64,000 nt of DNA from a virus (IMGVR_UViG_3300020185_000024:1-64000), one strand, 5' to 3'. Shown: positions 1,871-8,775, counted from the first letter of the stretch. Notes: generated by a model not told the origin, from the letters alone. A program made the numbers and translations.

Positions 1871-2842
1871 TTAATTGCATATATGCTTAAAAATGTCAGG
1901 ATGAGTCTCGACAAATTTATTTTTTTTCGCATTTATAAAATTACTTAAAATAGCTTTTTTAAATTCTTTTTGTTTATTTATAGGAATTTTTATATTCTCT
2001 GTAAACTTTTTTCCGTAAAATTCTCTCATTTCTTCTTCAGAATGCTCAATAACTTCTCCCCAGTCTAAATTTATAATTTTTTTAAGATCTTTTACTAATC
2101 TATAAGTACCGATATAATTTTTAATATATTCCATTAATTTAGAATCTTCTGTTAAATTTAAAACGTGAACTTTAAAAAATTTTAAAGATATAGGTCTATT
2201 CATTATATATGCTAATCTATAATAAGGAACATATTCTTTTTTTATTTCTAAATGAATAACAGGAATATAGATACTTTTATTATCTATAAAACATCTAACT
2301 AAAAAAACTCCATTTCCTATAAGAGCATGGTTAATATTATTGACCGAGGTTAAATTAATATAAGAAGATAATAAAGACTCAATAGATATTGATTCAGTTC
2401 TATTTAAATTAAAAATACTAGAATAATTACAAACAGAAGAATATAAATATTTTTTAATTTGTGTTTTTATAGAATTTTTAATAGGTAATTGATAATCTGA
2501 ACTTACATCGTAATTTAAATTCGAGTTTGTTAAATAATGACTAGAAAGTAAGACATCTTTTAAGTACTTAGGAAGTTCTCTATCTACATGATTTGTATAT
2601 TCCGCATTGATATTAAGACTTAATTTATTATTAATATCTTTAAAATAATATTCAAAATCTGAATAACTCCTTATAGAAAGATTATTTATTCCTAATAAAG
2701 GAGCATATCCTTCAGTACTCTTATTGCAAACTAAATATAAATTATTTAATATTCCTGAATAAATATTTAAAAATTTTGAATACATAAAGGAAATAGGATA
2801 TGAATCAAGATTAAAATTAATTTTTTCTACGTTTACTAACAT
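1871..2842 (-). CDS. Hypothetical protein directly downstream of the E1-like gene
   Basis: 323-aa ORF overlapping the E1 3' end; no motif recognised. Confidence 0.7.
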
Positions 2843-3515
2843 TTTCTACTGTATTTATTTGAACATTAAAAGAAGGGATTTCAAATTCCACCATAAATGG
2901 AACTTTTCTAATCTTTCTTTTTTTATTTTTATTAAATATTATATTAGTTACAATAGCAGTCATCATAGAGCCTATCATAGCTCCTGTTTGTGAAGTAGCT
3001 TTATAAGAGCATTCTTGTTCTTCGATATCTTCATCGTTAAATAACCAATTTTCATATTCTTCTTCTTGTCCAGGAACTACACAAAATATTTGAAATGTTT
3101 CTGCTTGCATTCTTCCGTCAATAAAAGCAATTCTATCATCTTGTAACGCTTTCCAAGCATTAAATAAGCATTTTCTAGCTTTCATATTATCAAAAGCAGA
3201 AAAAGTTAAAGGTAAAGCTTCGCCAGCTTCGTCAAGTTCTCCTAAAAAATGAACATTAGAATTATTACAAGTTTCATAAATTAAATCGCTTAACGCTTTA
3301 AACTTAGTTTTGTCTACATCAGAAGTTTTATAAAGTTGACCTCCCATATTATGTTCTTCAAGAATATCCATTTCATATACATAAATTTCATATCCTAATC
3401 TACCTAACATAATTCCTAACCAAGATCCAATACCTCCAGCACCACCTAAAACTACTTGCATTCCAGGTGTATGCCAAGGAGCATCTTTGAATCTATCAAA
3501 ATTTTGATTTTTCAT
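2817..3515 (-). CDS. ThiF/MoeB/E1-family adenylyltransferase
   Basis: GAGGIG nucleotide-binding loop, [23 protein letters not shown]; candidate catalytic Cys in ECSYKAT. Confidence 0.9.
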
Positions 3516-4963
3516 TAATTTATAATATTTTTATAATTAGGATATTGTTCTCCCCATTCTTTATACATTTTTTCTTCTATAGATTCTTCTTCTTCTATAA
3601 AGTTATTTAATATATTTTCAGATTCTTCTATTAAAACATCTGCTACAGCGTCTCCTAAAAAACTAGATATAGGGGCTAATTTTATATTTTTAGCGCACTC
3701 TTTATAAATAGCTGATTGCAAAGTAGTATTTTGATATTCTATGTCCAATGTGTAGAAAGCAGCTTCATAATACTCTTGTAAAAAAGTTTTAGAACCTTCT
3801 GCAAGTCTTTCAGCATCTTTCATAGTAAATTCAACTTGGCTTCCAGTGTAATCATTTTCAGCAGTTCTGCAACAATTCATTATAAAAACTTCTGAATCTC
3901 TTTCTAATAGCTTTATTAAAAAAGAATCATTTGGAATTTCTTCTTCGTTCCAAATGCACATAAATATAAACTTTTTCATTGCTATTTCTTCTTCTTCAGC
4001 AAATCTGTTATTTGCAGGTTTAGGAAAACTTATACTTTTTTGAGTATTTAAATTTTCAATTCCTTCTTTTGTTTTTTTTACGCCATTTTCTTTTTTGCTT
4101 TCTAGTGAGAAATTGTTCTTTGGAAGAACTCTTTTGTATGGAATACTCATTTGTTTTCCTATCTTGCTTTTTTGATTTTTTATTGTAGGATTTAAACTTT
4201 GATGATGATTTCCATTTATGTACGAAGGCTTGTAAATTTTCATATTGCTGACAGTTTTTGCCTTCTTGATTTCTGCCAGAGCATCTAAAAAATATTGATC
4301 TTTTACTTCTGATTGTCCTTTCCATTCAACATCTAAATCTAAAGTTACTAGCACATCTTTTGTAACTTCTATTTGTTGCTCTTTTAAAAAGAAGTTTTCT
4401 AACTTTTTAAACATTTTACTAGGGTAATACTTAACTTTTTCTGTAGTTGTTTCAGGAACCATGTATGCTATTTTAGCTACAGGTTTTTCATCAAAATTAA
4501 CAATTAAAGAAAGTAATAAACTATCTGTAGTAGCGCAATCTTCTAAAGCTCCCATGTCTGTTCCAGAAAAGAAAGCTCTCATATTATGATGAGTATGAAT
4601 TATTCCCATTTTAACTTTTCCTAATTGTTTAGGATATTTTTGAAAATATTTTACAGCTTCATCTCCTGTTTGAAATTCAGTATATGTAGCATTGCCTATA
4701 TCCATAGGAATCATATCTACTACTTCAGCTTTTATGCTAGAAGGATCGTCTATAGTTCCTTTTAATATTCTCCAAACTAGTCTTCCTGACCATTCTATAG
4801 GTCCCACTTCTTTGTGGAGATACCTAACTTTATTTATAAAGTCAATAGGAACTACTAATTTTCCTTTTTCTTTAAGTTCTATAATCTTATGTTTATGATT
4901 AACTACTTTTCTTTCGTTAATAGGAAGAGAAGTATCTCCTCTGTTATCTGTTATACTATTCAT
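3515..4963 (-). CDS. JAB/MPN+ (JAMM) metallopeptidase with long C-terminal extension
   Basis: Catalytic Glu in IEWSG plus HxH-x7-SxxD motif [15 protein letters not shown]. Confidence 0.85.
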
Positions 4964-4965
4964 TT

Positions 4966-6069
4966 TTAAAATTTTATTGAATTTTTGTCATAAAAATCTT
5001 CAATTGAATTAAAATACTTTATTGCTTCACGAATCATATAATAATTTATTATTTCTATTTTAGAATCGCTACTCGCTATATTTTTTTCTTTTATATCTTT
5101 TATATCTACACAAGTAAAATCTATTTTTTTTCCTTTAAATGTATAAGATCCTATTTCTAAGCATAACTTATTTGCTTTAGCTGTTAAAACTTTCTTTGAG
5201 CATTCTTCATTAACGCTATAATAACTATTAGAATTAGCTTTTTTATAAGCTATTAAACCAAAATGAAACTCTTTTTTAACTTTAGGTTTTATTTTAATAG
5301 CTAACTCCATTAATACTTCATCAGTAATATCAGAACTATAAGCATGCATATTAAAAGTTTTGCTTGCAGTTTTTAACTTAAATACTAGATTAAAAAAAGT
5401 TAATAATTCTTCCATTATTAAAAATATTAATGCTTGATGTATCTCACGAGTATGATATCTATCTGTGCTTAATAAATTGTTATTAGAATCTTCAGAATAC
5501 AGATAATTTTTTCTTTTATTTAAATAATAATAAGGAATTCCTTCATCGCTTTGCCAACTTACAAATTCTCTTAAATGAAATAAATAAGCTAATACATGAC
5601 TTAAACGCTTAGTTTTGTCTGACTCTTTTGAACTTCTATAAACTATATTGTTTATAGGACCAGATCCTGTACAAAATTTTTGCCATCCCCAATTATGATT
5701 TGAAATATTACTTGCTTTTTTTAAATGAGAATGAACATATCCAGATAATAAATTATACCAGCTAGCTGATAAAACCATTCCCTCTAAATCACTCATTAAC
5801 CTAAAATTGCTAAGATTTATTTTAAAACGTACTAGCAAATTATAAATAGTTGTTTTATTTTCTGAACCTAATTTTCCATTTTGAATAGTTATTTCAGGAA
5901 ATCGTATAGTAGTTATTAATTTGGTTCCTATAACTCTACATTCTACATTATCTTCTCCATAAGCGTTATTTGCTGCTAAAGTTACTTTAGAAATAAAATC
6001 TTTTTCACTTAATTCTTCAGATGTTTCTTGTTTTTCTACAACTTTCTTTTCTACTTTTTCTAAATTCAT
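4966..6069 (-). CDS. Putative prokaryotic E2/UBC-like protein
   Basis: YVHSHL...WQKFCTGSGP resembles the HPN/HPH...C(L)G arrangement of E2 enzymes; lies between Ubl and JAB/E1. Confidence 0.55.
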   Translation of the reverse strand: MNLEKVEKKVVEKQETSEELSEKDFISKVTLAANNAYGEDNVECRVIGTKLITTIRFPEITIQNGKLGSENKTTIYNLLVRFKINLSNFRLMSDLEGMVLSASWYNLLSGYVHSHLKKASNISNHNWGWQKFCTGSGPINNIVYRSSKESDKTKRLSHVLAYLFHLREFVSWQSDEGIPYYYLNKRKNYLYSEDSNNNLLSTDRYHTREIHQALIFLIMEELLTFFNLVFKLKTASKTFNMHAYSSDITDEVLMELAIKIKPKVKKEFHFGLIAYKKANSNSYYSVNEECSKKVLTAKANKLCLEIGSYTFKGKKIDFTCVDIKDIKEKNIASSDSKIEIINYYMIREAIKYFNSIEDFYDKNSIKF

Positions 6070-6086
6070 AATAAATATTTTTAATT

Positions 6087-6122
6087 AAAAAAAAAGAAAA
6101 GAGCCTAAGCCCTCTTCTTTTT
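6087..6122 (-). terminator. Intrinsic terminator between the Ubl gene pair and the E2-like gene
   Basis: Minus strand AAGAGGGC-TTAG-GCTCTTTT hairpin plus T run. Confidence 0.6.
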
Positions 6123-6140
6123 AAAATCTTGAATTAAAAA

Positions 6141-6326
6141 CTAAAATGCTTTTTTCATTTCTTCTTCTAATATTTTTTTACTTGTCTTAATTATTATATT
6201 TGATAATTTGTCAAGATCTTTATCAAATTCTTCTAACAATTCGTCTAAGGAAGAAAAATTTAGTTTTTTTTCTAATTCGTCTCTATTTATTGTCGTTTTA
6301 GTAGAATTTCTTTCTACTGTACTCAT
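6141..6326 (-). CDS. Small helical hypothetical protein coupled to Ubl
   Basis: 61 aa; TAATG overlap with the Ubl stop codon. Confidence 0.65.
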   Translation of the reverse strand: MSTVERNSTKTTINRDELEKKLNFSSLDELLEEFDKDLDKLSNIIIKTSKKILEEEMKKAF

Positions 6327-6571
6327 TAAATTCCAGATTTAACTTCCATAGGAGAAAGAAAGATAGTCAAATCGCCATCAGAAGGAGATTCTGGCAATAA
6401 AGCTTCATCAGCTTCTAAAGTACTACTGTTATGACTAACTACTGCTTTCATAGAGCTAATCTTATTTACTCGTGATGACAATGCTTGTTTAAGGTCTCCC
6501 CAAGTTGTAGCATCAGTGTTTACTTCAAAGTCAGTACCTGACTGTGTGTTATAAATTATAATAGTTCTCAT
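6326..6571 (-). CDS. Ubiquitin-like (beta-grasp) protein
   Basis: 81 aa; beta-hairpin MRTIIIY..FEV, helix TWGDLKQAL, last strand LTIFLSP, C-terminus VKSG-I; next to E1/JAB genes. Confidence 0.75.
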   Translation of the reverse strand: MRTIIIYNTQSGTDFEVNTDATTWGDLKQALSSRVNKISSMKAVVSHNSSTLEADEALLPESPSDGDLTIFLSPMEVKSGI

Positions 6572-7956: not shown

Positions 7957-7991
7957 AAAAAAAAAGAAGGGAAGCTGTTAACTCCCCTTCT
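7957..7991 (-). terminator. Intrinsic terminator
   Basis: Minus strand GAAGGGGAG...CTTCCCTTC plus T run. Confidence 0.65.
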
Positions 7992-8001
7992 AATTAATCA
8001 T

Positions 8002-8775
8002 TTAAAACAAGCCTGTAGTATTAACTTCTTGACCTGCTAGAGCAGGAGGATTAGCAGAAGCTGCTATAACTTCTTCAGTCCATTCTCCAAATTTCAAAGT
8101 AGGATCAAAATCAGCTTTAAATTGCTTAAAGTCATCTTTCAATGCAGTAAAAAATTGAGAATCTCTTTGAGGTTTAATTCTACCAAAATGATGAGTATAA
8201 ACTTCTTGATATTTATCATCTTTAACTCCTAAAAGACATCTAAGTTCATTATCAGCAAGAGCTGCGTGGGCATTTAATAAGCTAGATACGTCATTATTAA
8301 ACACTTCTACGTTTAATTGACAAGGATCTCCTGTTCTAACATTAAATAAAGCTCTTACAAAACTAGTAAGATTTTCTTCTCCGTAATAAGCTTCTCTTAC
8401 TTCTTCATTTTTATACCAATCATAAATTTCAGCAGGATTAGTTGCTCCCCATTGAAATCTACCTTCTTTGTTTATCCATTGGTATTTGTTACCATCTTTA
8501 TTTTGTCTTTTTTCATTCCGAACTAAAAACTCTGATTTAACAGATAATTTATATTCTTCATTTCTAAGCCAAAATACAATTTTATTGTGAACAGTACCAT
8601 TAATATTAATATTAGTGTACTCAGGTTCTTTTTTAATATAATCCATTCCTAACTCATGTAATTGAGTTAATGTAGGATTTATTGCTATTACTTTCATTGA
8701 AGTTATACCAGAATATAATTTTATTCCGTTATCTTCTACTACTGCTTCATTTGAGCTATTTGTTTGTATTCCCAT
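8002..8775 (-). CDS. Putative single-stranded DNA-binding protein
   Basis: Lies between AAA ATPase and primase as in crAss-like replication modules; aromatic-rich core with a flexible tail ending in F; followed by a terminator. Confidence 0.5.
   Translation of the reverse strand: MGIQTNSSNEAVVEDNGIKLYSGITSMKVIAINPTLTQLHELGMDYIKKEPEYTNININGTVHNKIVFWLRNEEYKLSVKSEFLVRNEKRQNKDGNKYQWINKEGRFQWGATNPAEIYDWYKNEEVREAYYGEENLTSFVRALFNVRTGDPCQLNVEVFNNDVSSLLNAHAALADNELRCLLGVKDDKYQEVYTHHFGRIKPQRDSQFFTALKDDFKQFKADFDPTLKFGEWTEEVIAASANPPALAGQEVNTTGLF

Follow-up and report, generated by a model that had tools for sequence, protein, structure and literature searches.

Conjugation of ubiquitin-like proteins (Ubls) in prokaryotes has been worked out only in cellular systems, most of them directed against phages (Bil, type II CBASS and Bub). 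The DNA analyzed here is a 64,000-nucleotide stretch of a virus (IMGVR_UViG_3300020185_000024:1-64000), called the window throughout, in which genes on the minus strand encode a Ubl of 81 amino acids (aa), the product of a 61-aa open reading frame (ORF), a 367-aa E2-like protein, a 482-aa JAB/JAMM metallopeptidase and a 232-aa E1-like adenylating enzyme. With fair confidence, these genes are read as a phage-encoded cassette for ubiquitin-like protein conjugation, kept beside the primase gene in a crAss-like lineage.

Bil shares the list of parts (Ubl, E2, JAB/JAMM and E1) and, like the cassette, encodes no E3; its E2 is thought to choose the target without one (accessible sections of PMC11601596 and of bioRxiv 10.1101/2023.09.26.559546). 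Bil is host-encoded, whereas the cassette is virus-encoded, lies in the replication module and has the order Ubl-E2-JAB-E1. The E1 of Bil, BilD, is a multidomain protein (IAD-AAD-CYS) as described in the same sections of PMC11601596, whereas the E1 of the cassette is a single adenylation domain of 232 aa. The E2-like protein and the Ubl of the cassette belong to no Pfam or PADLOC family; among the PADLOC models only the E1 gave matches, weak and far below the cut-offs, to CBASS-type E1-E2 models (best E 4.6e-5), and the Ubl, the E2-like protein and the JAB gave none.

Type I Bub (BubAB, BubCD and the DUF6527 serine protease BubE; formerly 6E.1) is alike in precursor processing: in experiments, BubC cleaved the BubAB pre-protein directly behind Gly229 (Ye et al., 2024; accessible part of PMC11601596). 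The cassette is not a member of this type. As far as that part of the paper describes them, the extension in Bub is the E2 itself and the JAB is fused to the E1, whereas the cassette has an unrelated tail and four separate genes; the Bub E1 lacks a crossover-loop Cys and follows an oxyester route, whereas a Cys is invariant in both the E1 and the E2-like protein of the cassette. Judged by sequence, the cassette thus appears to resemble Bil in its parts and type I Bub in its processing, and to be a member of neither.

Operon type 6d (Iyer, Burroughs and Aravind, 2006; PMC1779556, in the sections available) has the same protein types together with a rapidly diverging alpha-helical protein, which recalls the fast-evolving partner of the cassette. 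The Prok-E2_D family and the 367-aa family have in common the pattern aromatic-x-x-...-G-x-[VF]-C-[ML]-G, but the hhalign comparison of the two was not significant, and the cassette E1 has no plasmid relative. Models of the NCBIfam PRTRC system (TIGR03734-03742), with which we take type 6d to overlap, were matched far below their cut-offs (PRTRC_ThiF, 23.5 bits against 144.75; PRTRC_A, 11.3 against 101.8, E 0.18). Among phages, TAPI of lambda and T1 is a Ubl in which a conserved C-terminal Gly is followed by a C-terminal domain, with release predicted to depend on the phage JAB TAPK; TAPI and TAPK belong to the tail module and are accompanied by no E1 or E2, whereas the cassette has both and lies in the replication module (PMC1779556, same sections). 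These sections cover bacterial Ubl/JAB/E1/E2 operons and TAPI/TAPK, and not this cassette. A literature search, with supplements and subscription journals outside its scope, found no paper tying crAss-like or any other phages to an E1/E2/JAB/Ubl cassette, and none describing the E2-like family.

The window is part of a virus record of 90,666 bases rated 92% complete. The major capsid protein matched Pfam Crass_capsid (PF23898) over its full length at 2.7e-143, and the terminase, portal and DNA polymerase of the record matched phage families; the source genome is therefore a crAss-like phage. A preliminary description of the window had placed it among such phages, and the assignment was borne out by the capsid match and by the synteny of the cassette with that of crAss001 (see below). 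The same description had listed five co-directional, mostly tightly coupled genes between 2817 and 6571, and all five ORFs were recovered there on the minus strand. The stop codon of the Ubl gene overlaps the ATG of the 61-aa ORF (TAATG), the genes of the 367-aa protein and the JAB are 2 nt apart, and base 3515 is common to the JAB and E1 genes.

The Ubl gene (6326-6571) encodes a protein with the C-terminus EVKSGI, which had been called beta-grasp-like from its sequence. The structure prediction gave a confident beta-grasp model (AlphaFold, predicted local distance difference test score (pLDDT) 86.9, predicted template modeling score 0.73) with the element order beta-beta-alpha-beta-beta. This predicted model was used as the Foldseek query against the PDB, and 48 rows within ranks 1-50 were examined. 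Among the matches listed were ubiquitin, NEDD8, SUMO, ISG15, Get5-UBL, UBX and DIX domains, and none was ThiS or MoaD. Ubiquitin-type structures were aligned with template modeling (TM) scores of 0.64-0.71 and a probability of 1.00, the E-values being borderline (1e-3 to 6e-3 for most ubiquitin/NEDD8/SUMO/ISG15 rows). Neither this model nor that of the 367-aa protein had a match at E<=1e-3. On the strength of the model, the 81-aa protein is predicted to have a ubiquitin-type beta-grasp fold. At the sequence level, no described Ubl family was found at E<=0.5 for 22 members, among the 25 listed of 52 matched Pfam families; PHROG 15560, a family of unknown function, was matched at 4.5e-9 over the N-terminal 83 of its 289 profile positions only.

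In the window, only the cap residue Ile81 stands between Gly80 (6332-6334) and the stop codon. Gly80 is invariant and K78 and S79 are nearly invariant in 22 sequences. The ends of the domain were compared in 28 loci with a readable Ubl gene, taken from 23 viral loci fetched with the E1 plus FpV4, crAss001 and four contigs of metagenome-assembled genomes (MAGs). All 28 close the beta-grasp domain with x-[S/G/A]-G, which is K-S-G in 24. Beyond the Gly it continues into a tail of 64-206 aa in 22 loci; the other six, including the window, have a standalone Ubl that ends exactly one residue past the Gly (caps I, K, E, I, K and N). The window therefore has the minority, split form (81-aa Ubl plus 61-aa ORF), whereas most relatives have a fused precursor with a tail. 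Since the domain continues past the invariant Gly in 22 of the 28 loci and is capped in six, a free C-terminal Gly requires cleavage, and the Ubl is predicted to be a precursor in which the Gly has to be exposed in this way. The standalone forms stop one residue after the Gly, so that natural gene fission coincides with the predicted cleavage site. The JAMM peptidase gene is located two genes from the Ubl gene.

The 61-aa ORF (6141-6326, minus strand) encodes an acidic, helical product and is translationally coupled to the Ubl gene. A small coupled ORF follows the standalone Ubl in four of the six split loci (61 aa in the window, 131 aa in L005, 81 aa in L020 and 77 aa in L026, the last ending in DAGFK). 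Argued from position alone, the 61-aa ORF is likely the detached Ubl tail; homology was not demonstrable, as it scored 2.6 bits against the hidden Markov model (HMM) of the tails, had no match at E<=10 against the HMM of the C-terminal part of the tails, and gave no BLASTP alignment with the L026 ORF. Locus L002 has a standalone Ubl with no small ORF behind it; in its E2-like protein (L002:4116-5681) the extension resembles, by eye in the alignment, a Ubl tail relocated onto the E2-like protein. Long acidic N-terminal extensions are present in several E2-like proteins (L002, L003, L006 and L020).

Some further features of the tails were recorded. The final ~20 residues of the Ubl tail (E..RL..EA.EL..GF) are found a second time in FpV4-like phages, as the C-terminal end of a small single-pass membrane protein that the same genome encodes ~3 kb upstream (L012:879-1049, L011:742-951 and L001:14942-15109; also L015:697-942, L010:827-1006 and L014:781-990). 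In an hmmsearch of a 1,394-ORF database, three of the membrane proteins were recovered with E-values of 5.5e-6 to 4e-4. In the Ubl tail and the membrane protein alike, as in the Ubl itself, Gly is followed by just one or a few residues before the C-terminus, and the shared segment could be a docking or processing motif. Weak SAP-domain matches were obtained for two of the 22 Ubl proteins scanned (best E 0.052, not significant), and many tails (L001-L024) start, by eye, with a conserved N-[WY]-T...T..L block; together these are non-significant hints of possible DNA binding by the tails.

The JAB gene (3515-4963, minus strand) encodes 482 aa, with the catalytic domain at approximately residues 36-165 and a C-terminal half without an assigned family. 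The JAMM motif (E...H-x-H-x7-S-x2-D) is complete, comprising Glu57, His123, His125, Ser133 and Asp136 (HTHH...SGTD, residues 123-136), and its residues are invariant in two alignments, of 24 and of 21 sequences. Pfam Prok-JAB (PF14464) was matched by 17 of 21 relatives at E<=0.1 (best 4.4e-6). A search of PDB sequences with the family profile returned no JAMM chain. Given the complete motif and the relatives that match Prok-JAB, the window protein was treated as a diverged JAB/JAMM member and a predicted peptidase, in agreement with its earlier naming as a JAMM peptidase.

The E1 gene (2817-3515, minus strand) encodes a single ThiF-type domain. Pfam ThiF (PF00899) was matched over residues 20-223 with 52.2 bits, above the 28.1-bit cut-off (E 6e-14; reproduced on the genome), so the original call of a ThiF/E1 protein with GAGGIG was sustained; PHROG 15670 was matched at 1.1e-60. 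The P-loop spans G24-G30 (GGAGGIG, 3426-3446), followed by Asp109 (3189-3191) and by Cys169 within ECSYK (3009-3011). The alignment of 23 sequences has 37 invariant columns, among them a 10-residue nucleotide loop (G-x-G-x-x-G), a 10-residue block around Asp109, FIDGR and Cys169. We take the first of these motifs to serve nucleotide binding, and Asp109 to be the Asp of the D-N-x-x-x-R motif. The E1 profile matched PDB sequences of MccB (4e-9), PaaA (2e-8), UBA5 (2.7e-7), SAE2, Uba1, ThiF, Cap2 (8e-5) and MoeB. The best NCBIfam matches were ThiF equivalogs (5.3e-10 and 7.5e-7), all far below their cut-offs. The alignment to PDB chains is limited to the first 120 positions, and the E1 is thus placed on a separate branch of the superfamily. 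The window E1 is the bare 232-aa domain. Extra regions were seen in two relatives, ~150 aa N-terminal in crAss001 gp76 (L025:6425-7576) and ~150 acidic aa C-terminal in L024 (7001-8146).

The E2-like gene (4966-6069, minus strand) encodes 367 aa. The N-domain (approximately residues 20-190) is predicted to be UBC/RWD-like and contains His113-Ser-His115 (5725-5733) and Cys133 (5671-5673; FCTG, 132-135); the C-domain (approximately 195-367) was poorly modelled and had no consistent match. The AlphaFold model has a pLDDT of 79 overall, mostly above 90 over residues 21-180, and runs through a helix, four strands, a short helix, the H-S-H loop, Cys133 and two long helices, with Cys133 in the loop that joins the fourth strand (96-103) to the next long helix (138-148). 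This is the element order of the UBC fold, with Cys133 at the place of the E2 active site, and a UBC-like N-domain is therefore proposed. The top Foldseek match of the model was Ube2S (E 0.049), and in the ESM Atlas the closest structural cluster with a name was Prok-E2_D (features 0.81, TM 0.53, 128 aligned), which is a lead only. Among 129 sequences, His115, Cys133, Gly135, Ser174 and Pro179 are invariant and His113, Ser114, Phe132 and Gly177 nearly so; the family consensus reads Y-x-H-S-H ... F-C-x-G ... W-E-S-L-E-G-x-P-Y. Among 1.84 billion representatives the family comprised 3,314 clusters at E<=1e-3 and 1,500 at E<=1e-30. From the model and these conserved residues, the 367-aa protein is probably an E2 of UBC fold with Cys133 as the catalytic residue.

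The order Ubl, E2-like, JAB, E1 is kept in 24 of 24 related phage loci. By BLAST, the E1 and the JAB were recovered in all 24, the Ubl in 23 and the E2-like protein in 20; the 24th Ubl was found by HMM, and the remaining four E2-like proteins are positional ORFs with the invariant motif. Because the gene order recurs in related loci, the arrangement is not due to chance. In 23 of the 24, the cassette has a primase gene upstream of it. In crAss001 the same four genes are gp79-gp76, between primase gp80 and UDG gp74 (HMM E-values of 1.5e-28 for gp79, 1.3e-33 for gp78, 7.4e-63 for gp77 and 1.4e-65 for gp76), and gp79 keeps the K-S-G end. The preliminary description had supposed that such genes may already be annotated singly in other crAss-like phages. 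This was confirmed by the GenBank labels of crAss001: gp76 is a 'thiamine biosynthesis protein', gp77 a 'metalloprotease domain containing protein', and gp78 and gp79 are hypothetical. Flavobacterium phage FpV4 also carries the cassette beside the primase gene, and its E1 gene is likewise labelled 'thiamine biosynthesis protein'. The main texts of Yutin 2021 (PMC7886860) and Shkoporov 2018 (PMC6235969) contain no mention of ThiF, JAB, MPN, ubiquitin, metalloprotease or gp76/77/79, though their supplementary tables may name the genes singly.

Relatives of the E1 were found in 79 of 50,697 phage records, of which 29 are FpV4-type Flavobacterium phages, 29 Bacteroides phages (crAss001, DAC15, DAC17 and the PhiCrAssBcn series), 12 uncultured gut crAss-like phages and a few others. 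None was found on 72,556 plasmids. Two exact peptide patterns were used to scan 185,579 species genomes, a search whose result is not proof of absence from bacteria; it returned four true E1 relatives, each on a MAG contig (3-54 kb), and three of these contigs have all four gene positions. Contigs from marine and estuary metagenomes of four studies also carry the cassette, identical over hundreds of bases. A 32.9-kb contig in a 'Promethearchaeia archaeon' MAG (L027, JAZGEW010000157.1) carries a crAss-type primase, Ubl, E2-like protein, JAB and E1, the last 50% identical to the window E1, and is most likely a mis-binned phage contig. E1 relatives of Xanthomonas and Erwinia jumbo phages were considered as further cassette carriers and rejected, as the cassette is not there. 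In one of these, the Xanthomonas jumbo phage PhiXhv-15 (L035:1691-5570), the E1 relative (E 1.9e-30 against the E1 profile) is preceded by a 141-aa protein ending in KASGG and an 892-aa Cys-rich protein; the locus had no match to the crAss-type Ubl, E2-like and JAB profiles and may be a different phage Ubl-E1 system.

From these observations a sequence of steps can be proposed. The Ubl is made with one extra residue after Gly80, or in most relatives with a tail of 64-206 aa, as observed in the sequences. The JAMM peptidase would cut after Gly80, by analogy with the cutting of BubAB after Gly229 by BubC. The single-domain E1 would then adenylate the freed Gly carboxylate and load the Ubl onto Cys169, from which it would be handed to Cys133 in the UBC-like N-domain of the 367-aa protein, a fold that is moderately supported. 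The variable C-terminal half of that protein would take on the choice of target, phage or host, with no E3 involved, as has been proposed for Bil, and the Ubl would be joined to a lysine; the JAB may also reverse the mark. A terminator-like hairpin of 14 pairs with a T run (6122-6091, minus strand; consensus scan) sits between the two small genes and the three enzyme genes, and its motif suggests that it could let the Ubl exceed the enzymes. As targets, the constant position next to the primase, RusA, UDG and polymerase genes suggests phage or host proteins of the replication stage. Evenly balanced for and against, in our estimate, is the broader proposal that a large crAss-like lineage, from marine Bacteroidota phages to gut crAss001/DAC15, runs its own Ubl tagging cascade in infection, with a precursor Ubl, a JAMM maturase, a minimal Cys-E1 and a new, sequence-orphan family of UBC-fold E2 with a built-in target-binding domain, and that the proteins it marks, of the host or the phage, are those at the replication machinery or close to it.

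Several results weigh against the conjugation cassette. In the E2-like family the classical H-P-N motif is replaced by Y-x-H-S-H, 18-20 residues before the Cys, so that the His is kept and there is no Pro-Asn; some prokaryotic E2 families likewise lack the classical HPN motif, as the available sections of Iyer et al. (2006; PMC1779556) describe. No match of the 367-aa protein was found in Pfam, NCBIfam, PHROGs or PADLOC, and none of 23 E2-like members matched UQ_con or any Prok-E2 Pfam family. A search of PDB sequences with the 129-sequence profile returned no E2, just a cytidylate kinase at E 0.11. In the hhalign comparison with Prok-E2_D, for which the latter was represented by 10 proteins from 8 of 301 Bacteroidota genomes, the probability was 0.25% and E 0.24; the local alignment sets FC[TL]G on VCMG and was not counted as evidence. 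The window JAB scored 18.3 bits against Prok-JAB (E 0.0022), below the 25-bit cut-off. The E1 profile aligned to solved E1s over positions 19-120 only, which is the nucleotide-binding part, and the putative location of Cys169 in the crossover loop comes from its spacing, 60 residues past Asp109, and not from an alignment. In the E1 family, the Arg of the usual E1 motif N-x-x-R-Q is a Gly. No RNA runs containing the stretch were listed.

Of the four functional assignments in the preliminary description, those of the E1, the JAB and the Ubl were upheld. The E2 assignment had been named the weakest link, and it proved so, the protein having no E2 profile match and moderate support for the UBC fold. 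The E2-like reading of 4966-6069 gained a UBC-like model order and an invariant, suitably placed Cys133, while the best Foldseek E-value was 0.049 and no sequence profile linked the protein to any E2 family. The candidate catalytic Cys of ECSYK turned out to be invariant in 23 sequences, its crossover-loop position being given by spacing only. As to the complete virus-side conjugation pathway in the replication module, the identities of the Ubl, the JAB and the E1 and the place of the genes agreed with it; the E2 is held with moderate strength, and conjugation itself is what we infer from these parts.

The alternative that survives best, although we consider it unlikely, is a sulfur-carrier pathway, in which the Ubl would be of the ThiS/MoaD/CysO/QbsE type, uncapped by the JAB and adenylated by the E1; the thiocarboxylate then formed would pass its sulfur on to a small molecule, a cofactor or a nucleotide, with the 367-aa protein as sulfur acceptor or transferase. 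A capped carrier, a JAMM protein and a small ThiF-type E1 form the layout of the CysO/Mec+ and QbsE/QbsD pathways, and the NCBIfam matches of the E1 to ThiF equivalogs and the thiamine labels of the crAss001 and FpV4 genes in GenBank are what such a pathway would lead one to expect. The E1, however, is one domain without a rhodanese domain. The preliminary description had seen no sulfur-transfer genes nearby, and this held for the whole record: no match to rhodanese, cysteine desulfurase (Aminotran_5) or PP-loop ATPase (ATP_bind_3) models was found in the 90.7-kb genome, in a search that gave matches in control genomes, though host enzymes could serve. The ubiquitin-type structures among the listed Foldseek matches of the Ubl, with no ThiS or MoaD, also favor conjugation, and sulfur-carrier operons feature neither tails of 64-206 aa nor a UBC-like partner bearing an invariant Cys.

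Somewhat less probable still is a role in counter-defence first of all, in which the JAB would strip host modifiers or cGAS-type conjugates (Bil, type II CBASS and Bub) and the Ubl, E1 and E2-like protein would be decoys or competitors. Conjugation by host Ubl systems is directed at phage structural proteins or serves to prime CD-NTases (PMC11601596, accessible part). The weak similarity of the E1 to Cap2-type models (the PADLOC E1-E2 and Cap2 matches given above) is also in keeping with this role. A decoy, however, would need no catalytic residues, whereas those of the E1 and the E2-like protein are kept together with the phage's own precursor Ubl across 3,314 clusters; the cassette also keeps one position in the replication module in marine and gut phages alike, which does not resemble a variable anti-defence island. 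Counter-defence overlaps with the conjugation cassette in one respect, since conjugation by the phage could itself target defence proteins. Finally, peptide modification, with an MccB/PaaA-like E1 that would adenylate the C-terminus of the Ubl or of its tail to give a modified or cyclised product and not a conjugate, is very improbable: MccB and PaaA do lead UBA5 in the E1 profile search, and many tails end in Gly plus one residue (GF), an ending found also on small membrane proteins of those phages, but the gaps in ranking are small and the alignments confined to the shared nucleotide-binding region, the N-terminal peptide-clamp domain of MccB has no room in a 232-aa protein, and a folded 80-aa beta-grasp protein with a JAB and a UBC-like partner fits conjugation better.

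If the conjugation cassette is what it appears to be, phages use the same chemistry as the cellular systems, either to reprogramme the cell or as a means of fighting back. It would be the first complete Ubl conjugation system encoded by prokaryotic viruses, a mirror image of Bil/Bub immunity, and a new E2 family and a minimal E1 would join the catalogue of ubiquitin-system ancestors. Public labels ('thiamine biosynthesis protein', 'metalloprotease' and hypothetical) mask the system. The cassette is present in cultured pairs of phage and host (crAss001 with Bacteroides intestinalis, DAC15 and DAC17 with B. thetaiotaomicron, and FpV4-type phages with Flavobacterium psychrophilum), so that the claim is directly testable.

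Downstream of the E1 gene, the usual neighbor is a conserved gene of family phrog_15446 (unknown function), present in 20 loci including FpV4 (one site is L014:7671-8732); crAss001 gp75 (L025:7576-8388) matched this family weakly (4e-4). This fifth gene family is missing in the window, where the E1 stop is overlapped by 26 nt by a co-directional 323-aa ORF (1871-2842, minus strand). The 323-aa ORF matched no Pfam, NCBIfam or PHROG family; as a candidate for the usual fifth partner it was rejected, as no link was found by BLAST, HMM iteration or jackhmmer and it matched nothing in the data set. The other peculiarities of the window are the split Ubl with its one-residue cap, the coupled 61-aa ORF and the terminator-like site after it (6091-6122).

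The Ubl and 61-aa ORF genes showed zero variation across contigs of four metagenome DNA runs. Elsewhere, the 40 variants listed included 17 non-synonymous and 2 synonymous in the E2-like gene, 6 and 1 in the JAB gene, and 1 and 3 in the E1 gene, one of the three synonymous E1 variants being a stop-to-stop change; these stem from diverged contig pieces, 12 more exist, and the counts carry no selection reading. Within 6.7 kb the consensus scan counted five terminator-like sites, where shuffled sequences gave 1.1 +/- 1.2. Another strong terminator-like hairpin, with 12 pairs and a T run behind it (7965-7991, minus strand), lies just upstream of the primase gene, after a 257-aa gene (8002-8775) whose product ends in NTTGLF.

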